Shown here in pieces: positions 23,292 through 54,377 of a DNA stretch of 64,000 nt. Origin of the DNA: Candidatus Omnitrophota bacterium (lineage in GTDB: Bacteria; Omnitrophota; Gorgyraeia; JABMRG01); the NCBI GenBank assembly GCA_028716165.1, contig JAQUQI010000007.1, positions 1,191 through 65,190 on the forward strand, written 5' to 3'. The notes under the pieces are model-generated. The model was given only the letters and a program-made list of their open reading frames with translations, had not been told where the DNA came from and searched no databases. A program made the translations under genes and the position numbers. Each line of letters starts with the position of its first letter. The first letter of the stretch is position 1.

Positions 23292-23308
23292 AATGCCAGT
23301 TTTTGAAG

Positions 23309-23532
23309 TATTGCAGGCGTCCTATTTGGAGACACCCTGCGTGCTCAATCACGTTCAATGGAAATACCTCACGTGTCATCCAGAGCGGCAGGAGGCGAGG
23401 CCAGAATAAGCCGCGAAGGATCTGGAAGTGAAGTCAGTATTAGATTCCTCGCTTCGCTCGGAATGACAAGGTGGACGCTCGGAATGACAAGGTGGACGAT
23501 CGGAATGACAAAGGCGGCGCTTGAAATGACAA
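23309..23532. repeat. mosaic palindromic repeat cluster A
   Basis: Left module attgcaggcgtcctatttggagacaccct…, then a tgtcatccagagcgg…gcgaaggatctggaagtga unit, then attagattcctcgcttcgctcggaatgaca and 3–4 further (c)ggaatgaca repeats. Confidence 0.85.
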
Positions 23533-27918: not shown

Positions 27919-28008
27919 GGAGAGGTCGCATAGCCCGGTTGAGTGCGCCTGCTTGGAGAGCAGGTAGGCCGCAAGGCCTCCAGGGTTCGAATCCCTGCCT
28001 CTCCGCCA
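27919..28008 (+). tRNA. tRNA-Ser: tRNA-Ser (anticodon GGA)
   Basis: Acceptor ggagagg/cctctcc, anticodon loop uuGGAga, a long variable arm and CCA. Confidence 0.8.
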
Positions 28009-28072
28009 TTGTTGACGCTCAGGCGAACCTTACGAGTGGAAATAGCAGGGTTCGCTAAGAGCATAAGGTGGT

Positions 28073-28660
28073 GTGTTAATGAAAAATAAGGCAGTTTATA
28101 TTATTGCTGGGCCTAATGGGTCAGGAAAGACAACTTTTGCGAAATTGTTTTTGCCTGATTATGTGAATTGCCCTAATTTTGTAAATGCTGACCTTATTGC
28201 TCTGGGGTTGGCTCCATTTGAGCCGCGAGCAGCCGCTATTAAGGCTGGCAATCTTGTACTGTAGCAAATTGATGAATATGCCAATCGAGGCGTTGCTTTT
28301 GCGTTTGAGACGACTTTGTCTGGCAAATCCTACGCAAGTCTACTTGCCGAATTAAAAAAGAAAGGTTATGCGCTTCATCTTTTTTTTCTTTGGGTACCCA
28401 GCCCGGAATTGGCGATAGCTCGTATTAAAGATAGAGTTGCAGAGGGCGGGCACAATGTTCCCGTTGAAGATGTGCGCAGGCGATTCTCGCGCGGCATCAA
28501 TAATTTCTTCGCGCTATACGAATCATTATTTGATTCTTGGATGTTGTTTGATAATTCAAAGGCAAAACCTATATTAATCGCGAAAAGACGAAATGGGCAT
28601 ACCGAAGTGCTTAACAACGAATTATTTGCCCATGTTCAGGAAAGTAGAGGTAATAAGTGA
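28073..28660 (+). pseudogene. zeta-toxin/AAA-family P-loop kinase interrupted by an in-frame TAG
   Basis: ORFs 28073–28264 and 28316–28660 share one frame. The P-loop GPNGSGKTT lies N-terminal and a zeta-toxin-like C-terminus follows. The single TAG is at 28262–28264. Confidence 0.65.
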
Positions 28661-31115: not shown

Positions 31116-31487
31116 ATGGAGGAATGGGCAATAGAAACGACGGATGTTTATGAGCGTAAGTATGAGCAGTATGAAAAGAAGCATCCTCATGAGCTCGCAG
31201 CGGTAATTGGAAACTTAGATACTTATTTCAAAACCTTAAACGAAGTCAATAACCCTCTCCAGGCGAGAGGCGGATTTGTTCACGGTGAGCCGGACGGTAT
31301 AAAGGCAATTGATCAAAAAGGTGGCGGACAGAAGATAAAATTGCAGCAAACCCGGCTTTATGTTTATCCGGATATTACGAATAAAATACTTTATTTAATT
31401 ACGATTGGGGATAAGGGTACACAACGAGATGATATCAATCTTTGCCGGGAATTTGTTAAGAAAGAAATAAGAAAAAGGGTTGAATAG
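31116..31487 (+). CDS. HigB-like toxin (RelE/ParE superfamily, Gp49/DUF891-like)
   Basis: The C-terminal RLYVYPD…ILYLITIGDKGTQRDDI matches the Gp49-like toxin signature. Confidence 0.55.
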   Translation: MEEWAIETTDVYERKYEQYEKKHPHELAAVIGNLDTYFKTLNEVNNPLQARGGFVHGEPDGIKAIDQKGGGQKIKLQQTRLYVYPDITNKILYLITIGDKGTQRDDINLCREFVKKEIRKRVE

Positions 31488-31534
31488 GAAAAGTAAATAT
31501 AAATTATTTGAAGTAAAAAAATAAGCGAAAGAAG

Positions 31535-32134
31535 GTGAGGATTATGGGCACAAAATATAAGAACGTATTAGAGATGGTGAAAGGAATTTCAAAAGACGAT
31601 ACTTTTAAAGACTTAGCTACGAAGCAAATTAAAGGTAAAACGTTGGCAAAATTTCTTTTTTATTTACGATGCGACCATAATCTTTCGCAGAAGCATCTTG
31701 CAACAAAAATCGGTTGTACCCAAAGCAGAATTTCTAAAATTGAAAGTGCTTTTGATAAAAATTTGACAATACAGGATCTGTTGGATTATGCGAAAGCATT
31801 AAATCTCCACCTAGAAATTGGTTACAGGCACCCTTCTGTCAAAATTGTTGATTTGATAAAATATCATGCTTTTAAGATTAAGGCATATCTTAATGAGTTA
31901 AGTGGGTTAGCCAAAGAAGATTCAACATTGAAAGAAGGGGTAGGAAAATTCTGCGTAGAAGTATTATTTAACATTGGGAAGTTTGTTTCGGATAACCTTG
32001 TAAAATTGGACCTTAAATTTAAAGAACAAAAGAGAGAGCCTGATGCTATTCATATTTCTGCACCATTAGAGAAAACCAAGTTAGAGCAACTATTAGAAAA
32101 AAATAGCGGTAAATTAGCGTCTTGCGCAAAATAA
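31535..32134 (+). CDS. XRE-family HTH antitoxin (HigA-like)
   Basis: The HTH segment LSQKHLATKIGCTQSRISKIES is present. It lies immediately downstream of the toxin. Confidence 0.55.
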   Translation: MRIMGTKYKNVLEMVKGISKDDTFKDLATKQIKGKTLAKFLFYLRCDHNLSQKHLATKIGCTQSRISKIESAFDKNLTIQDLLDYAKALNLHLEIGYRHPSVKIVDLIKYHAFKIKAYLNELSGLAKEDSTLKEGVGKFCVEVLFNIGKFVSDNLVKLDLKFKEQKREPDAIHISAPLEKTKLEQLLEKNSGKLASCAK

Positions 32135-32140
32135 TTTATG

Positions 32141-32500
32141 TATTGCAGGCGTCCTATTTGGAGACACCCTACGTGCTCAATCGTGTTCAATGGAAGTACT
32201 TCGTGCGTCATCCAGAGTGGTATAGTCGCGGTAGGGGTCGTTAGCGAAGGATCCGGGAGTGGCCCGTCTGTCATCCAGAGCGGAACAATCGAGGTAGAAG
32301 TCGTTAGCGGAGGATCTGGGCGTGACCCCGCTTGTCATCCAGAGCGACGGAAGGCGGAGCACATCTCGGTCGCGAAGGATCTGGGAGGGAAATGAGTATT
32401 AGATTCTTCGTCGCGCCTTCGGCGCTCCTCTTAAATGACAAGAAGGACGTTCGCAATGACAGAAGTGATGCTTGAAATGACAGCGAGGCCGCTTGGAATG
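32141..32500. repeat. mosaic repeat cluster B
   Basis: Same left module as cluster A, three tgtcatccagagcgg…gcgaaggatctggg units, then agtattagattcttcgtcgcgccttcggcgctcct and further aatgaca repeats. Confidence 0.85.
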
Positions 32501-32566
32501 GTAAAATTGACGGCCCGGGTGAAATTTAAAACGTCCGCGGTTAGCAGGTAGATACCATAAATAAAT

Positions 32567-32899
32567 ATGCGAATATATGTTTTGAAAATATTCTTAATAT
32601 TGTTCCTGACATTATCCCTGTCAATGAACGTGTTTGCGCGGCAGTTAAGTCTTTGCGAAGTGTCTTTCGCGGACTGGATATCCTTTTCCGATATGGAGAA
32701 AGAGGTCTTTATTGCCGAATCATGCAAGCATATGGTTGAGATTGAGCAAGAAAAATTTGTCATGATACCTGATGTGAAAATGATAGTCAGGGTTCTTGAT
32801 GCAGGCATTAAAGGCGTAGATATTGATCAATCAGATATTCCAGTGTTTAAGCTGTTATATAGGTGCCTCAAAGATACCGGATATTTTGCCCCCCGTTAG
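32567..32899 (+). CDS. small secreted protein (paralog of 45287–45616)
   Basis: Signal peptide with predicted cleavage after …VFA. About 85 % identical to the 45287 ORF. Flanked by repeat clusters B and C. Confidence 0.6.
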   Translation: MRIYVLKIFLILFLTLSLSMNVFARQLSLCEVSFADWISFSDMEKEVFIAESCKHMVEIEQEKFVMIPDVKMIVRVLDAGIKGVDIDQSDIPVFKLLYRCLKDTGYFAPR

Positions 32900-32946
32900 C
32901 AAACATTTTATCCATATATAGTCCATATGCAGATATTTTGAATCCT

Positions 32947-33281
32947 TTAAGCGCTATACTGCCTTGTATGTCGTCCGGAGTGACAGTATTAGATTCCTCG
33001 CTTCGCTCCCAATGACAGGCGCACTTTGCCTGTCACCCAGAGCGGTATTAGCGAGGCACGAGTCATACGCCTGTCATCCAGAGCGGCAATAATCGGGGCC
33101 AGAGTAAGCCGCGAAGGATCCGGGAGTGACCCCGCTTGTCATCCAGAGCGACGGAAGGCGGAGCACGTCTCGGTCGCGAAGGATCTGGGAGTGAGACGAG
33201 TATTAGATTTCTCGCTTCGCTCGGAATGACAGAAGCTTCACTCGGGATGACAGAAGTGACGACCCAAATAAAAGCCAAAAC
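32947..33281. repeat. mosaic repeat cluster C
   Basis: Left module ttaagcgctatactg…gtcgtccggagtgacagtattagattcctcgc…, shared with cluster D. Right end gacgacccaaat.aaa.ccaaaac. Confidence 0.85.
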
Positions 33282-33410
33282 GACTATGATGTGGTTTAGC
33301 GCGGAATCAGGGGGGTTAGCCTGTTGTTAATAAATAGTTAACGCGTTAAATCATACTTGACAGATATGATTTCTTGAGGTATTCTTGTTGACATAAGACA
33401 TAGAGAGAAG

Positions 33411-33962
33411 ATGAAGATAGTTGGTGTAAATATAAAAAGGCTACGGGAAGAACAAGGCTTGACTTTAAGGCGTCTGGCGAATAACCTCGGTATCAGTGCC
33501 AGTTTCTTATCCCAGTTGGAAAGCGGCAAATCTTCACCTTCTTTGGCGACCCTCAAGCATATTGCGGACACTCTCTCTACAACCATTGGCGAACTAATAG
33601 GGGAAGGGCAGAAAGCGGAAACCAACCCAGTGGTTAGGTCCGATGAGAGAAAACATGTCCATGAAGTAAGCAAGGGGATAAGTCTTTATCTTTTGACATC
33701 GCGCGACGCAAATAAGCAGATGGAACCTCTACTTTTTAAACTCAAGGAAGGTGCGTCTTCCGGCTCCAGAGCATATAAACATTTTGGGCAGGAATTTGTG
33801 CTGGTTTTAAAAGGCTCCATAGAAATAACGCTCAATGAGATATCTTACATACTAAAGAAAGGCGACAGCATATATTTTAATTCAAGCATTCCGCATGACT
33901 TTAAAAATGCGGGCAAAGATGAGACGGAAGTTGTCTGGGTCATAACCCCCCCGACCTTTTAA
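33411..33962 (+). CDS. XRE-family transcriptional regulator with a C-terminal cupin domain
   Basis: HTH segment LTLRRLANNLGISASFLSQLE. C-terminal cupin segment GDSIYFNSSIPHDFKN. Confidence 0.7.
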   Translation: MKIVGVNIKRLREEQGLTLRRLANNLGISASFLSQLESGKSSPSLATLKHIADTLSTTIGELIGEGQKAETNPVVRSDERKHVHEVSKGISLYLLTSRDANKQMEPLLFKLKEGASSGSRAYKHFGQEFVLVLKGSIEITLNEISYILKKGDSIYFNSSIPHDFKNAGKDETEVVWVITPPTF

Positions 33963-34041
33963 AATAGGGATATTTTTTTTGGGAAAAATGTTAACTATAA
34001 GTTAAAACTGTTAACTTAAACAAAACAAAAGGAGGTTCTCC

Positions 34042-35259
34042 GTGAAAGAACTGATAAGATTAAAATCCAGGGGGCTTAAAGAGGCGCTGATTAAATTTTA
34101 TGCGAAACTCGGAAGCATTGAAGTCAAACCGGGTTGTATAGGCGAGTTTATGGATATTGTTACCGGCGAAATGAAGGCTCTTAATTTTGACAAGGTAACC
34201 AAGGATAAATCCGGTAACCTGATAGGGATAATAAAAGGCTATCGGAATAAGGAATCCCTGGTGCTATTGTCTCATGTCAGTGCTGTTTCCGCAACTCGGC
34301 AAAAAATAGAGGGTTTGCACGGTAACGATATGGTGAGGTTTAAGTCCGGTATTATTACCAGCATTTATACAGGAGCCTTGCTCAAAAGGGCTATGCTTCC
34401 GTTGGAAGGTGATTTGATAGTTTGTTGTATTCCGCGGATGGAATGTTGCGCTTTTGGAATCAAATATCTCTTTGACAATTTTTTGAAAGATAAAACCAAG
34501 AAGATTAAAGGCGTTATTCTTTGCGAACCTACCGGTTTTAACATAAATCTCGGGCACAAGGGCAGGATGGAGTACGAGATCGTGGTAAAAGGCAAATTAA
34601 ATAAGAATTTTTTGGAGAACCGCGGAATCAACATGCTGGGCACGATGTTTCCTTTGATAAACGAACTGGAGAAAATTTCTAAAGAATTACCAAGTGATTT
34701 TAATCTTGGGCGTTCTGACTTAAGGATAAAAGATGTGCGTTACAGCGGTTATCGGCCGCAGGAGGAAATGAACGAATTCCGGATAGTGGTAGACAGGGGT
34801 TTTGTCCCGGAGGAAACCAAAAGGTTTATTCTGGATAAGGCCAAAAATTTGGCCAAGGCGGTATACAAACAGGAAACAGATATTACTGTAAATGCCCTCT
34901 TGGTTAAAGAGAAGATCAGGACTTACACAGGGCTTAAACTTTTATCTAAAAAGGAATTTAAGCCATGGGCTATGGATGGCCATCGCCCTTTTGCTTTAAA
35001 CTCGCTTAAGAGTATAACCGAAAGCGGGTTTAAGTCGGATTTCGGGTATTGGCAGGATATTGTTACCGAAGGCTCTTATACGTATGCCCAGCTTGGGATA
35101 CCCACTATAGGTTTTGGCCCGGGCTCGGAAAATGATCTGGATCCCGCGGAGAAGACGCTGGGCATAGATAAACTGGAAAAGGCGGTTTACGGCCAGGCGC
35201 TGATAATCCATCGCAACATAGGCATGCCGATATTCGGCTGGAGCACCGATGAGATTTAA
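34042..35259 (+). CDS. divergent M20/ArgE-DapE-like protein (putative deacylase)
   Basis: …ILCEPTGFNINLGHKGRMEYEIVVKGK resembles the M20 catalytic domain. No canonical HxD metal motif was seen. Confidence 0.35.
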   Translation: MKELIRLKSRGLKEALIKFYAKLGSIEVKPGCIGEFMDIVTGEMKALNFDKVTKDKSGNLIGIIKGYRNKESLVLLSHVSAVSATRQKIEGLHGNDMVRFKSGIITSIYTGALLKRAMLPLEGDLIVCCIPRMECCAFGIKYLFDNFLKDKTKKIKGVILCEPTGFNINLGHKGRMEYEIVVKGKLNKNFLENRGINMLGTMFPLINELEKISKELPSDFNLGRSDLRIKDVRYSGYRPQEEMNEFRIVVDRGFVPEETKRFILDKAKNLAKAVYKQETDITVNALLVKEKIRTYTGLKLLSKKEFKPWAMDGHRPFALNSLKSITESGFKSDFGYWQDIVTEGSYTYAQLGIPTIGFGPGSENDLDPAEKTLGIDKLEKAVYGQALIIHRNIGMPIFGWSTDEI

Positions 35260-36484
35260 AAAAAATACGGTAAACATACTGGTGCTTAATTGCGGCAGTT
35301 CGTCCTTGAAGTATAAGATAATAAAAATGCCGGGCGGCACCGAACTTGTGCGTGGAGAAGCCGAGAGGGTGGGCATAAAGACCCAGGGTGTTTCCCGCAT
35401 TACACATTTTTCTTGTGGGAAAAAAACGGTGGTGGAAGTACCGCTTGCCAATCATGCGGCCGCGCTTAAAAAATCCCTGGAGCTCATAGCACGAGACAGC
35501 GCGGAAAACTCTGATATATGTTTTGATGTTTTCGCGCACCGCTATGTTCATCCGGGGACATTGTTTTCCAAGACTATGAAAGTTGACAAAGTGGTTTTAC
35601 GCAAGTTAAAAGATACACTGCCGCTCGCGCCTATACATAATCCTATAATTTACCGTTTGATTGAATTCTGCTACGATGAATATTACAACATAAGACAGTT
35701 TATAGTGTTTGATACTTCTTTTCATAGATCCATTCCCCCGGAATTTTCCACTTACGCTTTACCGTTAAAGATTATTAAAAAGTATCATATCCGCAGGATA
35801 GGTTTCCACGGCCTGTCCCATCAGTATGTTATGGAGGAGGCCTGTAAATTTTTGGGGAAAGACAAATCTTCGCAGAGAATAATAAGCTGTCATCTGGGGA
35901 CCGGCGGTTCAAGCGTTTGCGCTATTAATAACGGCAAATCCGTAAACAATTCCATGGGGTATACCCCGCTTGAGGGCTTGATGATGAATACCCGCTGTGG
36001 CAATATTGATCCTGGCATAATATTCTACATAATGTTTAAAGAACGGTTTTCCCCTGAAGAGACCGAAAGTGTTTTTAACAACAAAAGCGGGATTTTGGGT
36101 GTGTTAAATTTTTCGTCCGATTTACGGGACGCTATCAGGGATATGAGGAATAATCCCAGGGCCCGGATGGTATTTGATATGTATATACGCCGGGTAAGGT
36201 CGTATGTAGGTTTTTATTCGTTGATATTGAAAAAAGCGGATATGTTGATTTTTACGGATTCGTTGGGGGTGTCCTGTCCGGATTTGCGCCAGGGTGTTTG
36301 CAGAGGCATGGAGTTATTGGGCATCCGGCTGGATGAAGGTAAAAACGCGGGCTGCCGAGGTAATATAGGAGATATCTCATCTGTTAGGTCGGAGACGAAA
36401 GTTCTCGTTATCCCTACGGACGAGGAAATTATGATCGCCCGGCAAGCATACAGGGAGTTGATGAAAAATGATACTGGTTGTTGA
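35249..36484 (+). CDS. ackA: acetate kinase
   Basis: Motifs ILVLNCGSSSLKYKI, FDTSFH and GFHGLSH are present. Confidence 0.85.
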   Translation: MRFKKNTVNILVLNCGSSSLKYKIIKMPGGTELVRGEAERVGIKTQGVSRITHFSCGKKTVVEVPLANHAAALKKSLELIARDSAENSDICFDVFAHRYVHPGTLFSKTMKVDKVVLRKLKDTLPLAPIHNPIIYRLIEFCYDEYYNIRQFIVFDTSFHRSIPPEFSTYALPLKIIKKYHIRRIGFHGLSHQYVMEEACKFLGKDKSSQRIISCHLGTGGSSVCAINNGKSVNNSMGYTPLEGLMMNTRCGNIDPGIIFYIMFKERFSPEETESVFNNKSGILGVLNFSSDLRDAIRDMRNNPRARMVFDMYIRRVRSYVGFYSLILKKADMLIFTDSLGVSCPDLRQGVCRGMELLGIRLDEGKNAGCRGNIGDISSVRSETKVLVIPTDEEIMIARQAYRELMKNDTGC

Positions 36485-37559
36485 TTATAATCTTAAAGAG
36501 ATTAAGGTCTGGGGATTCAAAGGAGAGCATGGTTCTTTGCCGCCGGTTTTTACGAAGGATGCTGATGAGATAACCGACGACAATGTTCTCCGGGATTTTA
36601 TTCGCGCTGTTTCCTGCATGGATACCGTTGAAGCTATTTCTTTCAGGATATTGTTTGGAGGCGATTATTTTAAAAATCCGGCGCATTTATGTCCTGGGTT
36701 TTTCTCCAGGTTCTCAAAACTTACGGATCTTTTTCCTTTTTATGTCCCCTTGACTGTTGAGATGTTGAAAAGATTTTACAGGGTATTTAAGAATGCCCGG
36801 CTCATTGCTTTTTTTGAGACGTCGTTTTTTTTGAGGTTACCGGATAAAGAAAGATATTACCCGCTGCCTTTTGAGTATTACCGGAATAATAAAATAAAAA
36901 AGCGGGGGTTTCACGGAATATTTCATGAAGCAAACGCCGGCATATTCCCGGAAAGCGGGAAAAACATATCAATGGTTTTTGACAAACAAACGACTATATG
37001 CGCTATTCGTAATAAGAGCCCGCTGTCCATAAGTCTGGGGTATACGCCGCTGGAAGGCATTATGTCCCGGACGCACTGCGGAGACTTGGATGCCGGGATA
37101 ATATTTTATCTCATGAATGTCCAGCATTTTTCGAGCTATAAAATTGACGAGATGATGAAGCAGGAGAGCGGATTCCTCGGCCTTACCGGTTATGACATTG
37201 AATTAAAAGATATGCTCAAGCTTAAAGGTAAAGACCCTAAGGTTGACTTGGCGTTTAATGTGTATAGCGCCCAGATAATGAAATATATAGGGGAGACGAT
37301 ATCTGTTATGGGAGGATTGAATAATATAATTATAGCTGGCGACAATATTGATATATTCATTCCTGTAATTTACGATGTCCTCAAAAAAATATCTTTTTTG
37401 GGTATAAACTTATTGCGATTACCGTGGGACAATAAGACAAGTTTAATTAATATAACTTCCGAAGAATCCGGAATAGGAGTCTATCTTAACCGAATGAGCT
37501 TTCCGGAAATATTATCGCTTTGGACCAGGAATCTGATTTTTGCGCCTGTCAAACTGTAA
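36468..37559 (+). CDS. acetate-kinase-like degenerate paralog
   Basis: It aligns to AckA (FETSFF, GFHGIFH, GYTPLEGIM) but lacks the N-terminal NCGSSS and HLGNGAS catalytic motifs. Confidence 0.6.
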   Translation: MILVVDYNLKEIKVWGFKGEHGSLPPVFTKDADEITDDNVLRDFIRAVSCMDTVEAISFRILFGGDYFKNPAHLCPGFFSRFSKLTDLFPFYVPLTVEMLKRFYRVFKNARLIAFFETSFFLRLPDKERYYPLPFEYYRNNKIKKRGFHGIFHEANAGIFPESGKNISMVFDKQTTICAIRNKSPLSISLGYTPLEGIMSRTHCGDLDAGIIFYLMNVQHFSSYKIDEMMKQESGFLGLTGYDIELKDMLKLKGKDPKVDLAFNVYSAQIMKYIGETISVMGGLNNIIIAGDNIDIFIPVIYDVLKKISFLGINLLRLPWDNKTSLINITSEESGIGVYLNRMSFPEILSLWTRNLIFAPVKL

Positions 37560-37599
37560 GATACTGAACTAATAGATATTATAGTGCGTTTTGAACCTT

Positions 37600-37876
37600 T
37601 TAAGCACCATACTGTCTCGTGTGTCGTCCGGAGTGACAGTATTAGATTCCTCGCTTCGCTCGGAATGACAGGCGCACTTTGCCTGTCATCCAGAGCGGTA
37701 TCAGCGAAGCACGAGTCATACGCCTGTCATCCAGAGCGGAACCGGCGAGGCCAGAGTCGTTAGCGAAGGATCTGGTACTGCCCCACCCTGTTGTCCGGAG
37801 TGGCAGAATTGACGCTCGCAACGACAGAGGTGGCACTTGGAATGGCAGAAGTTACGACCCAAATCAAATCCAAAAC
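37600..37876. repeat. mosaic repeat cluster D
   Basis: Same architecture as cluster C, including the gacaggcgcactttgcctgtc hairpin. Confidence 0.85.
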
Positions 37877-38151: not shown

Positions 38152-41100
38152 GTGAAGACAGTATTGAGAAGAGCTGTAGTTTTCATTGTTTTGCTTAGTT
38201 TTGTGTTTCCGAATACTATTTATGCCAATGATCTCAAAATTCACACCTTAAGGCAGATGTCAGCAGCTTTAAGCAATTTCAACAGCCGGTTTATTGATAA
38301 AGATTTCTTTTACGGAGAATTCAGTGATATAAAAAAAATATTAGACAGGGATATGTTCAGGGATTATGATTACCGGACAAGAGGCCGCGAAATTGACCCC
38401 CGCATAGCTTTTAGGATGGGGATTATCTGGGCGAGAATGGCCCTGGACAACATGTCCAGTTTTCATGTAGACAATAAAACTGTTATTTTTGCCCGGGATT
38501 GCCGTGACGTTAATCCCGAAATAGCCGAGGCTGTTATCGCGGGAGTAAGATATTGCGGGCTTAATGTAATTGATATTTCACAAACTATGCGTAACAGCGC
38601 CGCCGCTTATTCATGGTCTGTGATACAGCATAAGCCGCTTATGGGTATTTTTATGACCTCAAGTCATGTAACAGGCGATGGTGTATCAGGATTTAAAGTT
38701 AGCATAATGGGCAGAAACGGTAAACTGCAAAGCCTCACCACCAGAGAGATAAAAGATGTAAGTTATGGCCTGTTGACCCTGATGATAGAAGAGCCCGATA
38801 TTATAAACGCGTATAAAAGCCAGGATATGGGCAGTCTGAATGCCTGCCATGGCACAGAAACTGAAGCCGCGGATTTTATCACTTTATTAGGCAGGATAGT
38901 TTCAGGTGAACACAACAAAGAGCTGGCTGTCCGGGCAAGGACTGTTATGCGGTCAAAAGACCCGGCGGCAATGACCAGGCTGATGAACAATAGTATGGCA
39001 GGGCAACAGCCGTTGAAAGGCATGACGGTTGTTATAGATTCTGCCCATACACCAAGCGGTGTTATAGCTGAAAAGACGTTTGCTGATTTGGGGGCCGCGA
39101 TAATATCATTGCATGCCGAACCCATGCTTTTAAAAGGAAATCATAAGGCAGACCCGTCAAAGCCTGAAAATTTAGAAGACCTGAAAGCCGAGATGCTTAA
39201 ATCCGGAGCAGGCCTTGGCCTTGCTTTTGACCTTGACGGCGACAGAGGGGCTATTTGCGTGCCTGACGGAAGAGGCGGTGTAGACGTATTGTCACCGGAC
39301 AATGTTATGGCGGCTATATTGAAATTTCTCATTAAAGGGTGCGGTTATGAACAGACCGGACCGATTGCCGTGGTGCGTGATGTCTTGTCAACGCGGGGCG
39401 TTGACGACGAGGCAGAGCTGTATGGAGTGCGCGCGGAACAGACCGATGCCGGCTACGTCTTTTTAAAGGAAAGAGTCCGTTTTCTTCAGACCAACGGATT
39501 TACCGTCCCAATTTATGGAGAACGTTCCGGTCATATCTGGCTTGATGCCGCGGGCGAGTTTGAAAATCCAATAGCTGTAGCAGTGTTATTTGCCGTAATG
39601 AACTCTGACCTTCTTTTTAAATATAAACCCGTGGCCTATAAGCAGTCTCCCCGTTTTCAGCCGGAGTTTTCACAGCCGCTATTGGCCGTTCTTTCTTCTC
39701 ATAAGCACAACGATACGGGATGGAATTATAAAGAAGCGGTAGAATATCTTGTCAACGGAACCGGCCACAAGCCGCCGCAGAAGATTATAGCGCTTGGCAG
39801 GGACCACGCGATAAAAATTTTGTCAGAAGTGTTTAAAAAAGGCGCGGAGTTCAAGACTCCTATAGGTAAAATCAGCGTTGAGAGTTATGATACGTATAAA
39901 GACGACGAATCCGCGGGCGGGTTGTTTAGATACGCGGATATAGGTTTTTCAAGAAATGGAGAATATATAGGCAGATTCGTATTTCGCGCCTCATCCAATG
40001 ACCCTACGTTTGTTTGTTCTTTTGAAGCTGCTCATGGCAGTGGAGAGATTGGGGAAACTGTCAGCCTAAGATATATTTCCGTGGGAGGACTTGTTCTTGA
40101 TAGCCTGGAACAGCTTAAGTTAGCCTCTATTACCGGCGTGCCACAAGGCGTGCGCCAGACACTCGAAGACTATAGAAGCCTTATGAAGATACCGGCTGTT
40201 TCGGCCAATAATCCTATCTTCTTTGAATTTGTTTCAGCAGGGCAGACGCTCAACGGCGGGGTTGATTTTGAACCTATTCAAAAGCCCGGTTTTTTTCAAT
40301 CTATAAGCGAGGAGATGCTTGATAATATGGCTTTTGATCTTGCGTTCAGGACGGGAAAACCGGAAAGGCTTAAGATGCTGAATGAGATATTTGAAATAGC
40401 ATCTGTAAAAAAAATATTTCCCGCCTCAATACATAATCTATACATGGTAATGGGCAAAGGCTGGACAGGCGGTTTTACTGTTCCCGCCATAAATATTAGA
40501 GGGCTAACCTATTATACCGCCCGGGCGGCATTCAAAGCCGCTGTTAAGCGCAATGTCGGGGTAATGATATTTGAAATAGCAAGAAGCGAGTTAGGTTATA
40601 CCGGACAGGACGTATTGGAATACGCTGGCCAGATTACCTTGGCTGCAATGAGAGAAGGTTATGAAGGGCCTTTGTATTTCCAGATAGATCACGGCCAGGT
40701 CAATGCCAAAAAAGATTACGATTCAGAGATAAAGGCATTGAAAGACCTGTTCAGAGAAGCTATCGTTGACGCTAAATTCGGAAATATTGATGTGGATACA
40801 TCCACGCTGGCCCTGACAGAAGGCAGTCTCAAGGAACAGCAAATGCCGAACGCGCGCGCTATTGCTGAATTGATAAAAAATATCAGGTCTATAGAACCTG
40901 AAAACACCACCATATCTATAGGAGGCGAGGTAGGAGAAGTCGGCAACAGGAACACCACGCTTGATGACGTGGAGGCTTTCATGGACATATTAAACGGCAT
41001 GCTTACCGCCGATAATATATCCGTTGGTTTAAGCAAGTTGAGCATACAGACAGGAACGGCTCATGGAGGGGTCCCATTGCCGGACGGCAGTCTCGCGCAG

Positions 41101-42279
41101 GTAAACATTGATTTTGATATAATTGAAAAGGTAAGCGCATTAGTAAAAAAGAAATACGGCATGTCCGGGGCTGTCCAGCACGGCGCGTCCACCTTGCCTG
41201 ATGAGGCGTTTCATCATTTTGTTGATAAAAAAGCTTCTGAAATTCATCTTGCGACAGGATTTCAGAATATAATATTTGACAGCAAATATTTTCCGAAGGA
41301 ACTGCTCAACAGAATATATGAGATACTTCTGACGGATCCGGCCTTTGCCTCTGACAGGGCCAAGCTGGAATCCGGCAAACAGACAAAAGAGCAGTTTTTG
41401 TATTCAACAAGAAAAAAAGCGTTTGGAATACCGGAAATAAAGCTTGCAATGTGGACACTACCCGAAGAAACTATAGATAATATACTCAAGGAACTTGAGG
41501 AAAAATTCGGGTTTTTATTTGAACAATTGAATGTTGTTAATACTCTTAATCTGCGAAGATATGCCGTCAAAATACCTATCGGCAAATCCTCCTCCGCAGG
41601 TATCCTTGAACTCGACAAGCCTTATACCCTTACAGAGTACAACTTATTATCAGTCATAGATGAGTCTATACGCGAGAATAACGGTGTCCTGGCGAATACA
41701 CTTATTGAGTCCAAGCTCTCGGCAGAGCTTATCAGGCTTTGCCCTAAGTTTTTAGCAGATCAGGCCGGCCTTGAAAGAAACCACATTGTTGCCATTGATG
41801 ATAAGATGCTTCCCGAAGGCCATATATTCAATAAGTATCTTTTAAAAGATACGGCACAGCATCAGGCCCTGGAAGAGTCTCATGGCTGTATGATACGCTT
41901 GTTGTCCCAGCTGACAACAGATGAGTTGACAGGCAGAAACCTTATAATCATATCGGACCGCAGGAGCATAGAAGGATATGAAAAGGCCCTATATCTCAAT
42001 GTTGATAAACAAAGGATAGATGCCGGACTCCTGCTCGCCCCGTATATCGGTATAGCAAGGCTTTTGCTTTCCGCAAGAGAGGACATAGTAATTGACATAA
42101 CAAACGCCTTAAACAAGGACAACCTTTACAGTATGCTTTTTGGCAGGCCTGCCAAGGAAGATGATATAAGGAAATTCCTTATTGAAGGTATATATGAACT
42201 TCCGGCCCCTGCCATTGTCAATTATCAGCAGGCAGAGGACATGCACCGCGCCTCATTGGCCGCGTTGATAGCAGCTTAA
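38152..42279 (+). CDS. 1375-aa secreted multidomain protein: phosphomannomutase/phosphoglucomutase-like domain, class II fructose/tagatose-bisphosphate aldolase domain and a shared 233-aa C-terminal domain
   Basis: Signal peptide. PGM/PMM-like motifs TSSHVTGDG and LAFDLDGDRGAI. Class II aldolase motifs FTVPAINIRG, YFQIDHG, SIGGEVGEVG, TGTAHGG and VQHGAST. The C-terminus is identical to that of the next gene. Confidence 0.7.
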   Translation: MKTVLRRAVVFIVLLSFVFPNTIYANDLKIHTLRQMSAALSNFNSRFIDKDFFYGEFSDIKKILDRDMFRDYDYRTRGREIDPRIAFRMGIIWARMALDNMSSFHVDNKTVIFARDCRDVNPEIAEAVIAGVRYCGLNVIDISQTMRNSAAAYSWSVIQHKPLMGIFMTSSHVTGDGVSGFKVSIMGRNGKLQSLTTREIKDVSYGLLTLMIEEPDIINAYKSQDMGSLNACHGTETEAADFITLLGRIVSGEHNKELAVRARTVMRSKDPAAMTRLMNNSMAGQQPLKGMTVVIDSAHTPSGVIAEKTFADLGAAIISLHAEPMLLKGNHKADPSKPENLEDLKAEMLKSGAGLGLAFDLDGDRGAICVPDGRGGVDVLSPDNVMAAILKFLIKGCGYEQTGPIAVVRDVLSTRGVDDEAELYGVRAEQTDAGYVFLKERVRFLQTNGFTVPIYGERSGHIWLDAAGEFENPIAVAVLFAVMNSDLLFKYKPVAYKQSPRFQPEFSQPLLAVLSSHKHNDTGWNYKEAVEYLVNGTGHKPPQKIIALGRDHAIKILSEVFKKGAEFKTPIGKISVESYDTYKDDESAGGLFRYADIGFSRNGEYIGRFVFRASSNDPTFVCSFEAAHGSGEIGETVSLRYISVGGLVLDSLEQLKLASITGVPQGVRQTLEDYRSLMKIPAVSANNPIFFEFVSAGQTLNGGVDFEPIQKPGFFQSISEEMLDNMAFDLAFRTGKPERLKMLNEIFEIASVKKIFPASIHNLYMVMGKGWTGGFTVPAINIRGLTYYTARAAFKAAVKRNVGVMIFEIARSELGYTGQDVLEYAGQITLAAMREGYEGPLYFQIDHGQVNAKKDYDSEIKALKDLFREAIVDAKFGNIDVDTSTLALTEGSLKEQQMPNARAIAELIKNIRSIEPENTTISIGGEVGEVGNRNTTLDDVEAFMDILNGMLTADNISVGLSKLSIQTGTAHGGVPLPDGSLAQVNIDFDIIEKVSALVKKKYGMSGAVQHGASTLPDEAFHHFVDKKASEIHLATGFQNIIFDSKYFPKELLNRIYEILLTDPAFASDRAKLESGKQTKEQFLYSTRKKAFGIPEIKLAMWTLPEETIDNILKELEEKFGFLFEQLNVVNTLNLRRYAVKIPIGKSSSAGILELDKPYTLTEYNLLSVIDESIRENNGVLANTLIESKLSAELIRLCPKFLADQAGLERNHIVAIDDKMLPEGHIFNKYLLKDTAQHQALEESHGCMIRLLSQLTTDELTGRNLIIISDRRSIEGYEKALYLNVDKQRIDAGLLLAPYIGIARLLLSAREDIVIDITNALNKDNLYSMLFGRPAKEDDIRKFLIEGIYELPAPAIVNYQQAEDMHRASLAALIAA

Positions 42280-42431
42280 AATGTATTACGGAGACTAGTA
42301 TCAGATTCCTCGCTTCGCTCGGAATGACAGGCGTACTTTGCCTGTCATCCAGAGCGGCAGAAGGCGAAGCCAGAGTAGGCCGCGAAGGATCTGGGAGTGA
42401 CCCATGTGTCATCCAGAGCGGCGGAAGGCGA
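41580..42431 (+). repeat. copy 1 of an 852-bp, 100 %-identical direct repeat (coding C-terminus plus start of a repeat cluster)
   Basis: Identical to 44119–44970 by direct comparison. Confidence 0.9.
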
Positions 42432-42636
42432 GGCATGCATCGTTAGCGAAGGATCTGGGAGTGAAATGAGTATTAGATTCCTCGCTTCGCTTGGAATGAC
42501 AAAAGCTTCGCTCGGAATGACAGCGAGGGGCGCTTGAAATGACAGAAGCAGTGCCCCCAATGACAGGCGCACTTTGCCTGTCATCCAGAGCGGCACAAGT
42601 CGGGGCCAGAGTAAGCCGCGAAGGATCTGGGAGTGA
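42295..42636. repeat. mosaic repeat cluster E
   Basis: attagattcctcgcttcgctcggaatgaca…tgtcatccagagcgg… units. It overlaps the spurious N-terminal extension of the 42539 ORF. Confidence 0.85.
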
Positions 42637-42661
42637 AAGCAGTAAAACCCGGAGGGTTATT

Positions 42662-44818
42662 ATGAAAAAGATTATTATTAAAGCAATAAACATTGCTATG
42701 GCTATTGTTTTTTCTGCCTCGTCAATTGTTTCCGCGCAGGTTCTTGATAATAGCAATACGCAGTATTTACGCGCCCCTGCCGCGGCAGGTAATGTTACAG
42801 CGGATTTAACGCACGCGCTTTCCGCGCCGCCGGTAGAGACTTTTCCCTGGTGGCATATCACCGAGCGTAAAGTAGCAAAGTATATAGCCGAATTAAGCGG
42901 TACACGGGATGAACGTTATCGCGCGGCAATAGAGCTTGGCAGGCTTGGTAAGCATGCCGAACCTTCCATTCCGTATCTTATAAAGGTGATGCTTTCTGAT
43001 GAAGAAAAAGGCCTGCGGACTGCAAGCGCGGCTTCACTTGGGGCTATTGGTATTCCTTCGCAAGAGGTTGTGTCCGCATTAAACAAGGCCTTGGAGGACA
43101 GCGAATACGATGTGCGTGTCAAGGCCATGCGTTCTTTGGCGGCATTAGATAAGCTTACCGTTGAGATGAAAGTCAAAAGATATATAATGGACATGGGTGA
43201 TGCCGATCCTAATGTTCGCGCTAATGCAAGCAAAGAATTGTATAATATCGGCTACCCCGCCATTCCTATTATAGAGGCCAGGAAAAATTCGAATGAGGTT
43301 TTAGCTAAAGCCGTGGATTCATTATATTGGCGCATTCTCCGCGGCAAATTATTTGATGTAGAAAATTTGATGAGACAGTTAGAGGGTGAAAATAAGGCCG
43401 CGCAGGAAAGGGCATCTGATATATTCTTCCGGCTCGGTAATGAAGCGGTACCTATATTAATAGAGGCATTAGGTTCTAATAAGCATAAACTGCGTTTGCG
43501 GGTATCCGAGATACTTTTCCGGATAGGGCTTATCGCTGCCGATGACCTTGCAAACGCTTTAAAAGAAGACGATCTATACATAAGGACATATTCCGCTGAT
43601 GTCTTAACCAGGCTTGGCATTAAGTCCGCGCCGTTTGTTATTAGAGAGCTTGGCAATCGCACAAGTAATGCGCGTTTTTATGTAAAATCAATTCTTTTAA
43701 GATTAGGCCCCGAAGTTATTCCGATGCTTTCGGATGTACTGAATATAGGTGATAATTCAGCGTGTGAAGACGCTATTGATATTCTAGAAGAGTTTTCCAA
43801 ACAGCTTCCGGAAAGAAATATTGTTTTAATAAGGGCGTTAGGGCACAATAACTGGTTTGTAAGAGAGCAGGCATTGAAAGCGATTAAACGGATTGGGTTA
43901 TTGACAAAAGATATGGAGCTATTCAAATACAGCAAAGACTTAAAGGATGAAGCCTGCCCGGGATTTATTAAGCAGGATGCCTTGAGAGGGTTAAGCGTTT
44001 TGCCGGGTCCTGGATCACACAAGATTGTAACGGCGTTTAAAACTTTTGATCCAGATCTGGGTCATATGCGTGAAAACGCATTAGATGACCTTGCTCCCGG
44101 AGTTGATGAAGATAAAGGCGGCAAATCCTCCTCCGCAGGTATCCTTGAACTCGACAAGCCTTATACCCTTACAGAGTACAACTTATTATCAGTCATAGAT
44201 GAGTCTATACGCGAGAATAACGGTGTCCTGGCGAATACACTTATTGAGTCCAAGCTCTCGGCAGAGCTTATCAGGCTTTGCCCTAAGTTTTTAGCAGATC
44301 AGGCCGGCCTTGAAAGAAACCACATTGTTGCCATTGATGATAAGATGCTTCCCGAAGGCCATATATTCAATAAGTATCTTTTAAAAGATACGGCACAGCA
44401 TCAGGCCCTGGAAGAGTCTCATGGCTGTATGATACGCTTGTTGTCCCAGCTGACAACAGATGAGTTGACAGGCAGAAACCTTATAATCATATCGGACCGC
44501 AGGAGCATAGAAGGATATGAAAAGGCCCTATATCTCAATGTTGATAAACAAAGGATAGATGCCGGACTCCTGCTCGCCCCGTATATCGGTATAGCAAGGC
44601 TTTTGCTTTCCGCAAGAGAGGACATAGTAATTGACATAACAAACGCCTTAAACAAGGACAACCTTTACAGTATGCTTTTTGGCAGGCCTGCCAAGGAAGA
44701 TGATATAAGGAAATTCCTTATTGAAGGTATATATGAACTTCCGGCCCCTGCCATTGTCAATTATCAGCAGGCAGAGGACATGCACCGCGCCTCATTGGCC
44801 GCGTTGATAGCAGCTTAA
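42662..44818 (+). CDS. secreted HEAT/PBS-lyase-repeat protein carrying the same 233-aa C-terminal domain
   Basis: Start placed at MKKIIIKAINIAMAIVFSASS (signal peptide; GGAGGG Shine-Dalgarno). HEAT-like repeats (AAIELGRLGK…, VRVKAMRSLAAL…). The C-terminus from GKSSSAGILELD… is identical to that of 38152–42279. Confidence 0.7.
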   Translation: MKKIIIKAINIAMAIVFSASSIVSAQVLDNSNTQYLRAPAAAGNVTADLTHALSAPPVETFPWWHITERKVAKYIAELSGTRDERYRAAIELGRLGKHAEPSIPYLIKVMLSDEEKGLRTASAASLGAIGIPSQEVVSALNKALEDSEYDVRVKAMRSLAALDKLTVEMKVKRYIMDMGDADPNVRANASKELYNIGYPAIPIIEARKNSNEVLAKAVDSLYWRILRGKLFDVENLMRQLEGENKAAQERASDIFFRLGNEAVPILIEALGSNKHKLRLRVSEILFRIGLIAADDLANALKEDDLYIRTYSADVLTRLGIKSAPFVIRELGNRTSNARFYVKSILLRLGPEVIPMLSDVLNIGDNSACEDAIDILEEFSKQLPERNIVLIRALGHNNWFVREQALKAIKRIGLLTKDMELFKYSKDLKDEACPGFIKQDALRGLSVLPGPGSHKIVTAFKTFDPDLGHMRENALDDLAPGVDEDKGGKSSSAGILELDKPYTLTEYNLLSVIDESIRENNGVLANTLIESKLSAELIRLCPKFLADQAGLERNHIVAIDDKMLPEGHIFNKYLLKDTAQHQALEESHGCMIRLLSQLTTDELTGRNLIIISDRRSIEGYEKALYLNVDKQRIDAGLLLAPYIGIARLLLSAREDIVIDITNALNKDNLYSMLFGRPAKEDDIRKFLIEGIYELPAPAIVNYQQAEDMHRASLAALIAA

Positions 44819-44970
44819 AATGTATTACGGAGACTAGTATCAGATTCCTCGCTTCGCTCGGAATGACAGGCGTACTTTGCCTGTCATCCAGAGCGGCAGA
44901 AGGCGAAGCCAGAGTAGGCCGCGAAGGATCTGGGAGTGACCCATGTGTCATCCAGAGCGGCGGAAGGCGA
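44119..44970 (+). repeat. copy 2 of the 852-bp perfect direct repeat
   Basis: Identical to 41580–42431. Confidence 0.9.
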
Positions 44971-45232
44971 AGTACGCTTCGTTAGCGAAGGATCTGGAAG
45001 TGACCCATGTGTCATCCAGAGCGGCATAATCGGGGTAGAAGTCGTTAGCGAAGGATCTGGAAGTGACCCATGTGTCATCCAGAGCGGAACCGGCGAAGCA
45101 AGCTTCGTTAGCGAAGGATCTGGGAGTGAAATCAGTATTAGATTCTTCGTCGCGCCTTCGGCGCTCCTCTGAATGACAAGGAGGACGCTCGGAATGACAA
45201 TGAGAGGCTCGCAATGACAAGGGTGAGGCTCG
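44834..45232. repeat. mosaic repeat cluster F
   Basis: Three regularly spaced copies of a gttagcgaaggatctggaagtgacccatgtgtcatccagagcgg unit with about 20-nt variable cores. The right end matches cluster B. Confidence 0.85.
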
Positions 45233-45286
45233 GTCACCAAAACGTAAAAATCAAAATGTCTGTAATTATAATTTGTAGCCACTAAT

Positions 45287-45616
45287 ATGCGTCTGTTAAT
45301 AATATTTTTAATGTTGTCTTTGGTATTGTCTCCAGCGATAAACGTGGTTGCGCGACAGTTAAGTCTGCACGAAGTGTCTTTAGCAGACTGGATATCCTTT
45401 TCCGATATGGAAAAAGAGGTTTTTATTGCCGAAGCATGCAAGCATATGGTTGAGATTGAGAAAGAAAAATTTGTCATGATACCTGATGTAAAAATGATAG
45501 CCAGGGTCCTTGATTCGGGCATTAAAGGTGTAGACATTGATAAATCGGATATTTCAGTGTTCAGGCTTTTATATAGATGCCTCAAAGATACCGGATATTT
45601 TGCCCCCCGTTTATAG
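45287..45616 (+). CDS. small secreted protein (paralog of 32567–32899)
   Basis: Signal peptide. Conserved …ADWISFSDMEKEVFIAE.CKHMVEIE.EKFVMIPDVKMI… segment shared with its paralog. Confidence 0.6.
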   Translation: MRLLIIFLMLSLVLSPAINVVARQLSLHEVSLADWISFSDMEKEVFIAEACKHMVEIEKEKFVMIPDVKMIARVLDSGIKGVDIDKSDISVFRLLYRCLKDTGYFAPRL

Positions 45617-45667
45617 CCTATCCATATATTTCTATTAATTCTCTATATCACCCAATTATGCATTTGA

Positions 45668-45890
45668 ATGACAGGTGTTGTTCATGTGTCATCCAGAGCG
45701 GCATAAGCAAAGCAGGAGTCGTTAGCGAAGGATCTGGGAGGGATCCGTCTGTCATCCAGAGCGGCGGAAGGCGAGGCCAGAGTCGGCCGCGAAGGATCTG
45801 GGAGTGAAATGAGTATCAGATTCCTCGCTTCGCTCGGAATGACAAGGGCTTCGCTAAGGATGACAAGTTATCCGGAATGACAAAAGTGAC
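45668..45890. repeat. mosaic repeat cluster G
   Basis: tgtcatccagagcgg / gcgaaggatctggga units, then attcctcgcttcgctcggaatgaca. Confidence 0.8.
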
Positions 45891-46127
45891 ACCGTGCCTT
45901 GCAAAATGGGGACAGCGGCTTTCATAAAAATCAAAACGTTTGCGGTTGTTTTTATAAAAAATATAAATAATGTGTTGACACCCTGTCTTTGTATGCGGTA
46001 AAATGTTTTCAAATGAAAAAAATCATATAGCATGTCATCTAACATTCAAATTCTTAATTCGTTTTTATCTTTTTGGGTGAAGTGCCGCCAATCTTACATT
46101 ATAAATTATCAAAAAAGAGGAGGAGGT

Positions 46128-49100: not shown

Positions 49101-49193
49101 AACAATGTAAAGGTTGACTTTGATTATGACTTTAATTTTAGGGATGATTTTAATTCCCACAACGGTGCTATAACGGTTAAATATAGTTTTTAA
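46128..49193 (+). CDS. autotransporter outer-membrane protein with PATR-type passenger repeats
   Basis: Start at MKKLCAVLL after AAGAGGAGGAGG. Signal peptide. Repeated [20 protein letters not shown] motifs. The C-terminal beta-barrel ends …ITVKYSF. Confidence 0.8.
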
Positions 49194-51125: not shown

Positions 51126-51296
51126 TTATCTACAAACAACACTTCCCGTGCATACCACGGGCGAGACGGTACATCTTGCGGCATGCGCTATAGTGCCCTC
51201 TTCGGGATGTTCTATTGCCTCAATCTCCGGTATTTGATAGTTCTTTTTAGTGTTTTTTTTGGCAAAATGTTTAAAATCTTTCGCATCATTTTTCAT
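51126..51296 (-). CDS. RiPP precursor peptide 1 (56 aa)
   Basis: Manual minus-strand translation: MKNDAKDFKHFAKKNTKKNYQIPEIEAIEHPEEGTIAHAARCTVSPVVCTGSVVCR. The Shine-Dalgarno GGAGGAG lies 6 nt upstream. Below the ORF-track size cut-off. Confidence 0.7.
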   Translation of the reverse strand: MKNDAKDFKHFAKKNTKKNYQIPEIEAIEHPEEGTIAHAARCTVSPVVCTGSVVCR

Positions 51297-51312
51297 AGTT
51301 TTCTCCTCCAGT

Positions 51313-51486: not shown

Positions 51487-51502
51487 AGTTTTCTCCTCCA
51501 GT

Positions 51503-53577: not shown

Positions 53578-53684
53578 CAGGTCTCCTGTTGGGAAGCTTA
53601 ATAAAATAATTATATCTCATATGGCTGTTGTTATCAACAAGTATTACAGACGTTTTGAAAGTTACGAGGCAAGCGTTTTCACGC

Positions 53685-54215: not shown

Positions 54216-54377
54216 TTAAAACGTTTACAGCCGCTTAATACGCTTGACAAAGGATATAATATCTCATATGATTATATATGATATGACAAGAGATGCTATA
54301 ATTTACTATAATAACATTCGGGCAATTTCTGTTATAAGCCCTGATGCGCGGCTTATCTTTTATGGAGGAAAAACACG

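Follow-up and report, generated by a model that had tools for sequence, protein, structure and literature searches.

The closest described counterparts of the repeats considered here are the BOX elements of Streptococcus pneumoniae and S. suis, composite repeats built on the plan boxA-boxB(n)-boxC (Croucher et al. 2011, PMC3049150), and the REP/BIME elements of enterobacteria together with the REPINs (Bertels & Rainey 2011, PMC3116915). Here we describe a stretch of 64,000 nucleotides from an uncultured Omnitrophota bacterium (GenBank assembly GCA_028716165.1, contig JAQUQI010000007.1, positions 1,191 to 65,190; hereafter the window, numbered from its first letter), in which two paralogous genes for a small exported protein, copy 1 and copy 2, each lie between two mosaic clusters of intergenic repeats: U1 and D1 around copy 1, U2 and D2 around copy 2. 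An earlier note, made from the sequence alone, had read this arrangement as a repeat-bounded cassette that had been copied, with the repeats behaving as the ends of a mobile unit. Our comparison upholds the copying of a segment that carries the gene and ends within repeats, but not the role of those repeats as mobile-unit ends. The two genes are diverged paralogs that, in our judgement, probably stem from an ordinary segmental duplication whose breakpoints fell inside BOX/BIME-like intergenic repeats. The coordinates of the features discussed are collected in Table 1.

Motif mapping together with a repeat finder located 11 repeat clusters between 23.3 and 61.4 kb (at 23.3, 32.1, 32.9, 37.6, 42.3-42.65, 44.8, 45.7, 49.3, 53.6-54.2, 60.4 and 61.2 kb) and none in the first 23 kb, despite several intergenic gaps of 300-500 nucleotides (nt) there. 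All of the clusters occupy gaps between long open reading frames (ORFs), and in the part from 23 to 62 kb the majority of the spaces that separate transcription units are filled in this way. The bracketing of each small gene by mosaic clusters, as described in the earlier note, is therefore real but not confined to the four sites beside the two copies: at least 11 clusters occur in the window, and they bracket at least six unrelated transcription units (33411-37559, 38152-42279, ~42660-44818, 46032-49193, 54605-60439 and 60733-61266).

The elements follow a common syntax. At the left terminus stands either an L motif (TGCAGGCGTCCTATTTGGAGA) or the motif CAGAyGTTTTGAA, designated E(-), often followed by a T1 hairpin module (AGATTCCTCGCTTCGCTCGGAATGACA). 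Next come zero to four H units arranged head to tail, each a palindromic unit of 63-64 nt (GTCATCCAGAGCG, a variable centre, CGAAGGATCTGGGAGTGA), with 41-nt half units in some cases. The H array is succeeded by a T1 or T2 module (T2 being GATTCTTCGTCGCGCCTTCGGCGCTCCTC) and by a tail of (G)AATGACA repeats, and the element closes with the right terminus E(+), AAATCAAAACGTCTG, an inverted version of the left terminus. This right-terminal motif is enriched both in the window (8 matches against 2.5 expected) and in L001 (4 against 0.33), a related locus that carries an ortholog of the small gene. The distance from the preceding stop codon to the start of an element ranges from a few to ~100 nt. Just past the right end of the element, a TTGACA-type promoter of the next gene is present in three of the gaps (33357, 45975 and 54245). 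Folding of U2 gave -178.6 kcal/mol for the + strand (z -7.4) and -153 kcal/mol for the - strand (z -4.9), and the outer stem of the H unit, UCCAGA/UCUGG, is conserved. A role in cis is probable for the elements, which would serve as structured sense-strand sequence in the interval from the preceding stop codon to the promoter that follows.

All 11 clusters have the + orientation, which is the direction of almost all genes and of the positive GC skew. Although divergent genes flank the cluster at 53.6-54.2 kb, it too has the + orientation, a hint that the orientation of the elements may follow replication rather than transcription. At 60396-60447, a T2 module overlaps the last codons of an ORF of 947 amino acids (57596-60439), and it appears that an element has here contributed to, or intruded into, the 3' end of the coding sequence.

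The features by which BOX and BIME elements are recognized are found here, namely dispersed intergenic copies (the 11 clusters) and fixed terminal modules around a variable tandem array. As in BOX, the elements are intergenic and modular, with distinct terminal modules around an array of variable length (zero to four H units here, boxB in BOX), inverted similarity between the termini, strong predicted stem-loops and a size that varies by gain and loss of internal modules; and just as related species hold 'A-C only' versions of BOX, so the elements of L001 lack H units. Unlike BOX, to which they bear no sequence relation, they are GC-rich in a genome of ~43% GC, whereas BOX lies near the genome average. 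They also differ in having the additional modules T1, T2 and the AATGACA tail, in the single orientation of all copies seen and in that no candidate mobilizing insertion sequence element was identified here, and their host is an uncultured Omnitrophota bacterium. With REP/BIME they share the form of short, GC-rich, imperfect palindromes set in mosaic arrays between a stop codon and the next promoter, as well as species specificity and service as substrates of recombination and duplication. The H units, however, run head to tail, neither alternating as in a BIME nor paired in inverted doublets as in a REPIN, and are longer, at 63-64 nt.

Two other classifications were considered for the repeats and set aside. 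A REPIN/RAYT system is at odds with head-to-tail direct repeats that all lie on the + strand, and no RAYT gene was found among the scanned ORFs of the window. A CRISPR array is contradicted by the variable centres of the H units, which are a few recurring and related subtypes common to several loci, and by the lack of a match in Rfam. Indeed, a scan of the whole window against Rfam at gathering thresholds returned four tRNAs only and no RNA family on the repeats, while a literature search on intergenic repeats of Omnitrophota produced nothing relevant. Neither H nor T1 motifs occurred in the 12 other loci that were fetched, and a peptide translated from the repeats found no match among 5.8 billion proteins; the H arrays are therefore lineage-specific. 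On these comparisons, the repeats constitute an undescribed BOX/BIME-like family in a candidate phylum for which metagenomes are the only source.

Against this background, the extent of the duplicated segment can be considered. A window-wide tblastn search found exactly two copies of the small gene, with no third copy or remnant. Their products are identical at 88 of 106 residues (83%, E 4e-65 by BLASTP), in line with the paralogy of about 85% already recorded for the two ORFs, and their coding DNA is 86% identical over 300 nt and 90.6% identical over the 255 nt that encode the mature protein. The length of 110 residues formerly given for both products holds for copy 1 and not for copy 2, which has 109. 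When the two regions were aligned at the nucleotide level, as the earlier note had proposed, similarity was not confined to the coding sequence but continued for ~170 nt upstream and ~45 nt downstream, into the near ends of both elements. The agreement that had been seen at the right end of the two upstream clusters is genuine (Table 1), yet its T2 module also occurs in four further clusters (at 49433, 53870, 54146 and 60396); this T2 module with its tail looks to be the only stretch of repeat that was duplicated along with the gene. Up to the ATG, the alignment of the unique upstream flank is weak and owes most to the E(+) motif (z 3.0 for copy 1 against copy 2, z 3.8 for copy 2 against L001). 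On the downstream side, global alignment of the copy 1 flank with L001 gave a z of 5.2, with none of 500 shuffles as good: copy 1 keeps ~45 nt of the 3' flank of the ortholog through TCCATATsCAGATrTTTTGAA, which takes in the CAGAyrTTTTGAA motif, and copy 2 has lost part of it. As far as it can be detected, the duplicated segment would measure ~0.43-0.55 kb, from ~32394/32520 to 32945, with both ends inside the neighbouring repeats.

Comparison with relatives also gives the duplication a direction. In L001-L003 the ortholog, P0001, lies directly 5' of a PATR autotransporter gene, as does copy 2, and the promoter and 5' leader of the autotransporter gene are conserved between the window and L001. 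The synonymous divergence (dS) is 0.34 between the two copies as against 0.66-0.87 between the copies and the ortholog, and the duplication therefore post-dates the split from L001. Copy 2 thus appears to occupy the original site, with copy 1 as the later duplicate. The latter would have landed among miscellaneous small genes that follow a tRNA-Ser gene, just 5' of an operon for a helix-turn-helix (HTH)-cupin regulator, a protein of 405 amino acids and two acetate kinases. This operon is conserved in many Omnitrophota; the genes upstream of it are different ones in L010 and L012, and the small gene is not among them. No precise boundary of an empty site for copy 1 could be drawn from the relatives, in every one of which the upstream neighbourhood of the HTH-cupin ortholog differs.

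The L001 locus is equally informative about the repeats. Three of its consecutive intergenic gaps, including both of those beside the ortholog, hold short elements of ~75-125 nt that have the same inverted motifs and no H units. The inverted pair CAGAyGTTTTGAAA ... AAATCAAAACGyCTG bounds these elements at 5174-5245, 6050-6127 and ~6500-6624, and the same pair bounds the large mosaic clusters of the window (53647-53661 / 54215-54232). When D2 was aligned with L001:6470-6840, its two H units (~137 nt) stood out as extra sequence within an otherwise alignable element. It would appear that a palindromic element, older and shared by both genomes, was the site in which the GC-rich H arrays expanded. 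Since L001 has short, H-less elements in both of the equivalent gaps, the elements at copy 2 are best taken as orthologous residents of those gaps.

This has consequences for the proposal of a mobile cassette, in which the flanking clusters would be the ends of a composite unit, akin to a pair of MITEs (miniature transposable elements that carry inverted repeats), mobilized in trans together with the small gene. Like a composite transposon or MITE cassette, the locus presents a gene between two elements with inverted termini and a second copy elsewhere on the chromosome; complete composite elements with inverted terminal motifs surround both copies, and the homology does continue past the coding sequence into the near end of each element. 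Furthermore, copy 1 lies in a variable region beside a tRNA gene, and homologs elsewhere adjoin HTH_17, Fic and recombinase genes. The flanks, however, are not the same at the two sites. The outer ends differ, the left end of U1 being 87-90% identical to the 23.3-kb cluster (23303-23388; ~90% at 23308-23385), whereas the first 152 nt of U2 (44819-44970) belong to a perfect 852-bp duplication that is considered below. The left 151 nt of D1 are 92% identical to 37589-37739, and it is there, not in D2, that D1 has its best match. The final H units of U1 (32327-32394) and D1 (33131-33198) are near-identical to each other, and the last H unit of U2 with its T2 module is 94% identical to 53785-53920. 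In a cluster-by-cluster matrix of all 11 clusters, U1 and U2 scored 216 bits (84-85% over 226 nt) and D1 and D2 only 129 bits, a likeness at the general level of the family, against 185-221 bits for unrelated pairs (D1 with the 37.6-kb cluster, 221; the 42-kb with the 53-kb cluster, 217; U2 with the 53-kb cluster, 210). Taken as a whole, the flanking clusters of the two copies seem no more alike than arbitrary pairs of clusters.

Several further observations tell against transposition as a cassette. The ancestral site holds resident elements, and the same elements bracket the unrelated transcription units listed above. The known copies number two, and the earlier note had itself named the finding of just one extra copy as an outcome that would refute its reading: no further paralog from this organism came out of searches that covered 5.8 billion and 1.8 billion proteins, and scans of genomes and metagenomes gave only orthologs elsewhere. 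No target-site duplications were seen by eye at 32135/33300 or at 44819/45945, where the left boundaries abut stop codons, and no transposase was found among the scanned ORFs next to the clusters in the window. With unlike flanks, differing outer ends and residents at copy 2, we consider it improbable that the repeats moved the gene as the ends of a mobile unit.

A different account would have the whole ~1.1-kb block of upstream element, gene and downstream element duplicated passively, with the H arrays remodelled later by unequal crossing-over and gene conversion. U1 and U2 are colinear, with 85% identity along 226 nt; D1 and D2 have ATGACArAAGTGAC and a degenerate E(+) motif in common at their right ends; and exchange of modules is clearly active, as attested by the 852-bp duplication and by identities of 92-95% between loci. 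The same colinear syntax and level of identity are nevertheless found between unrelated clusters, such that the present data fit duplication of the shorter segment equally well, and H units in matching positions are of the same subtype in one of three cases and disagree in the other two. We hold duplication of the entire block to be unlikely. The identities of 92-95% between modules at different loci exceed the ~73% expected for neutral sites at the age of the gene copies (proportion of synonymous differences, pS, 0.27); exchange or rebuilding has therefore affected the arrays after the duplication, and they can say nothing about the way in which the gene moved. The elements would exchange or turn over their modules faster than the gene copies diverge. 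Under the segmental duplication that we favour, the small gene would have been duplicated by recombination, template switching or replication slippage between dispersed elements, and not by transposition.

A second duplication lies close by. The perfect repeat of 852 bp (Table 1) gives identical C-terminal stretches of 233 amino acids to a fusion of phosphomutase and class II aldolase with 1375 amino acids (38152-42279) and to a HEAT-repeat ORF of 759 amino acids (42539-44818), and it also doubles the next T1 module with ~1.5 H units. On the left its boundary is in frame within the coding sequence, and on the right it breaks off inside an H unit. Either recombination or gene conversion took place at the repeats very recently, or the duplication is an artefact of assembly. 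That it ends in an H unit suggests the same process as for the duplication of the small gene.

Could the arrangement of the small genes itself be an artefact, arising from a chimeric metagenome assembly or collapsed strains, or from small ORFs that are not genes? The window belongs to a metagenome-assembled genome, repeats break assemblies (the contig of L004 ends inside U1), gene callers produced only truncated versions of 68-69 residues, and the perfect 852-bp duplication could stem from assembly. The two copies, however, differ in 9-14% of their nucleotides and lie in different unique contexts on one contig. L004, an independent JGI assembly, is 100% identical to the window over 32340-36243, thereby covering copy 1, D1 and the downstream operon, and copy 1 with its downstream cluster is therefore no quirk of assembly. 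The ratio of nonsynonymous to synonymous divergence (dN/dS) is 0.15 between the copies (dN 0.05) and 0.10-0.16 between the copies and the L001 ortholog, both over the mature region with inclusion of 18 residues before the annotated start. As the region with this low ratio takes in those 18 residues, the long ORFs are real genes, and both copies are under purifying selection across the whole mature region. Additionally, the signal peptide and conserved core that had been pointed out for the two products recur in all five known members of the family. An artefact is thus very improbable.

The public gene calls for the two copies (P0002 and P0003) begin at an internal methionine (MEKEVF...) and, at 68-69 amino acids, are ~40 residues short, so that they lose the signal peptide and 18 conserved residues of the mature protein. 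The ortholog P0001 is instead called too long, at 157 amino acids, with a start inside the upstream repeat element.

Certain points weigh against the account given so far. Apart from the sequence of the recent 852-bp duplication, U1 and U2 match each other best in both directions, a relationship that counts in favour of a cassette, and the T2 variant AGTATTAGATTC with the tail AAGrAGGACGyTCGsAATGACA is common to U1 and U2 alone. It is possible that a larger part of the upstream element was transferred with the gene, or that both elements were transferred whole and their modules then turned over. The count of two copies is drawn from the window and from protein databases in which the proteins of this assembly are included. 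The orientation of the elements is confounded with gene direction and GC skew. Nor does covariation support an RNA structure for the H units: no compensatory changes were found in 23 of them by RNAalifold and pair counting, the stems being invariant or varying on one side only. Finally, no significant sequence or fold match backs a function for the small protein.

Table 1 Coordinates of the principal features in the window
Feature	Position	Strand	Description
Copy 1, small exported-protein gene	32567-32899	+	110 amino acids; probable derived copy; predicted signal peptide = residues 1-24 (MRIYVLKIFLILFLTLSLSMNVFA), then 86-residue mature domain, predicted four-helix
Copy 2, small exported-protein gene	45287-45616	+	109 amino acids; probable ancestral copy, directly 5' of autotransporter gene
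T2 module with tail, shared stretch	32394-32461 vs 45133-45199	+	6/68 aligned positions differ, ~91% identity
Copy 1 3' flank	32900-32945	+	homologous to 3' flank of ortholog; ends in left-terminal inverted motif GCAGATATTTTGAA of D1
U1, upstream element of copy 1	32135-32550	+	L motif 32144-32170; three H units 32207, 32270, 32334; T2 32402-32430; AATGACA tail; degenerate E(+) 32523-32537
D1, downstream element of copy 1	32929-33293	+	E(-)-like terminus; T1 32991-33017; half H 33032; H units 33073, 33138; T1 33205-33231; GATGACA tail; degenerate E(+)-like end
U2, upstream element of copy 2	44819-45262	+	L-like start with an internal deletion; T1 44842-44868; four H units 44883, 44947, 45011, 45074; T2 45141-45169; AATGACA tail; E(+) 45248-45262
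D2, downstream element of copy 2	45655-45945	+	H units 45688, 45751; T1 45818-45844; GATGACA tail; E(+) 45928-45942
852-bp duplication, first copy	41580-42431	+	3' 700 nt of gene for 1375 amino acids, T1, one H unit and part of the next
852-bp duplication, second copy	44119-44970	+	3' end of ORF of 759 amino acids and start of U2; exact identity to 41580-42431
Sigma-70-like promoter of autotransporter gene	45975-46004	+	TTGACA, 18-nt spacer, TAAAAT; just past right end of D2; conserved in L001
Autotransporter gene	46032-49193	+	1053 amino acids; PATR beta-strand repeats and C-terminal beta-barrel; NCBIfam TIGR02601 autotrns_rpt E 1.1e-28 and autotransporter C-terminal matches
Candidate toxin-antitoxin-like pair 5' of copy 1	31116-32134	+	ORF of 123 amino acids and HTH_3 protein of 199 amino acids (Pfam E 6e-11; weak HipB/Y4mF antitoxin matches)

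The protein encoded by the duplicated gene belongs to a family of which, besides the two products of the window, searches recovered P0001 (74% identical, from an Omnitrophota metagenome-assembled genome) and P0004 (60% identical). The search covered 5.8 billion proteins and was complemented by a full HMMER scan of 1.84 billion representatives, which returned two family members only. Scans of genome and metagenome loci added a 62% relative (L005, L007 and L008) and a 42% relative (L009), the genome contigs among them, a set that does not include this organism, contributing one distant ortholog, L005. The family is tiny, and a few metagenome assemblies of Omnitrophota type are the only ones in which it has turned up to date. 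On a rule-based reading of the n, h and c regions and the -3/-1 rule, all five members begin with MR or MK, continue with 12-16 hydrophobic residues and have V/T-x-A right before (R/Q)Q, and all five are predicted to bear a signal peptide for Sec export and signal peptidase I.

AlphaFold2 models the mature domain confidently as a four-helix bundle (pLDDT 87, pTM 0.79). Nothing exceeded the threshold for the small protein in scans of Pfam, NCBIfam, PADLOC and PHROGs, a profile search against PDB sequences gave no match below E 0.36, and Foldseek against PDB and BFVD gave no fold match below E 0.4. The best resemblance among folds of matching size is to the periplasmic chaperones HdeA/HdeB (PDB 1bg8, 1dj8 and 2xuv), with TM 0.5-0.6, probability at most 0.57 and E 0.6-5 (lowest 0.57). 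These, too, are small, all-helical proteins of similar size that bear signal peptides, a resemblance that offers a lead and not a classification: sequence identity is 5-13%, and whereas HdeA/HdeB have disulfide cysteines, the two cysteines of the small protein are not conserved across its family. With Foldseek E values of at least 0.57 and no match to Pfam HdeA in addition, membership of the HdeA/HdeB family was rejected. As modelled, the small protein would be an orphan four-helix fold.

It is tempting to speculate on where such a protein works. Because it has a signal peptide, is under purifying selection and has a conserved linkage to the autotransporter gene at the ancestral site in two lineages, the small protein may, with low confidence, act in the periplasm or at the cell surface or outside the cell, and it could possibly work with the adjacent autotransporter. 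The linkage counts as one evolutionary event and is absent in L005 and L009. The neighbours in fact differ in all five contexts in which the gene is found: a HigBA-like pair and an HTH-cupin regulator; a HEAT-repeat protein and an autotransporter; PEMT and an autotransporter; tRNA-Cys and an HTH_17-Doc pair; and a protein of 325 amino acids and HTH_17. The earlier note had raised the possibility of an immunity-like or effector-like partner at other loci, for which these contexts offer no conserved neighbour; with no match in PADLOC either, an effector-immunity or toxin-antitoxin pair was discounted.

In L005 (5882-7231) the small gene follows directly on a tRNA-Cys gene and precedes a pair made up of HTH_17 and Fic/Doc. 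In L009 (5992-9051) it precedes HTH_17, and 2 kb downstream there is a serine recombinase. From such surroundings, the family apparently tends to sit at the edges of variable or integrative regions.

In the window, a run of small ORFs of miscellaneous kinds follows downstream of tRNA-Ser(GGA) (27919-28008) and has copy 1 at its right-hand end, and the stretch between the two may be read as an accessory islet. Just downstream of the tRNA gene, two adjacent short ORFs, 28073-28264 (MLMKNKAVYIIAGPNGSGKTTFAKLF...) and 28316-28660, look like one P-loop gene (zeta-toxin/AAA-like) split by a frameshift. Nearer to copy 1, the ORF of 123 amino acids at 31116-31487, partner of a HipB/HigA-like HTH_3 protein (31535-32134), has no match in Pfam, NCBIfam, PADLOC or PHROGs, and the two may form a type II toxin-antitoxin pair in which this ORF would encode the toxin, as yet unclassified. 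At 5050-5134, L001 has the 3' end of a tRNA-Ser (…TCCCTGCCTCTCCGCCA) with a flank that is 83% identical to the flank of tRNA-Ser(GGA) in the window (compared region 27992-28076), and there is no complete tRNA at that place; upstream of it lie genes for SpoVG, HTH_17 and Fic and several small ORFs. The fragment has the look of an att site left behind by an element that had integrated at tRNA-Ser.

On the other side of copy 1, the two genes of the acetate kinase family (35249-37559) are in tandem and overlap, and the protein of 405 amino acids encoded by the operon has no Pfam match. The order of the four genes (HTH-cupin, 405-amino-acid protein, two acetate kinases) is kept in both of the related loci examined, L010 and L012. 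A separate tandem repeat at 51133-51615, with ~2.5 copies of a 190-nt unit at 91-93% identity, is unrelated to the H and T modules and sits between 50763 and the 3' end of a radical-SAM/SPASM gene on the minus strand (51677-52678).

A bolder picture can be drawn, in which the composite elements are a new and active BOX-like family, mobile or recombinogenic, whose pairing across gaps copies and shuffles transcription units, and in which the small protein is a periplasmic partner of the autotransporter. We think it doubtful that this is so. If true, the repeats would be a lineage-specific engine of gene and domain duplication, accounting for both the small gene and the domain of 233 amino acids grafted onto the HEAT-repeat protein.

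As it stands, the locus reveals neither a new kind of mobile element nor a new function, and it carries a warning, in that a 'repeat-gene-repeat' pattern is expected by default where elements separate nearly every transcription unit. For annotation, the public records clip both small genes by 40 residues, with loss of the signal peptide, and leave the family without a name. For genome biology, comparison of orthologous gaps catches internal units in the course of expanding inside an older and shorter element. Two nearby duplications end in these repeats, and the locus thereby provides a usable example of repeat-mediated duplication.

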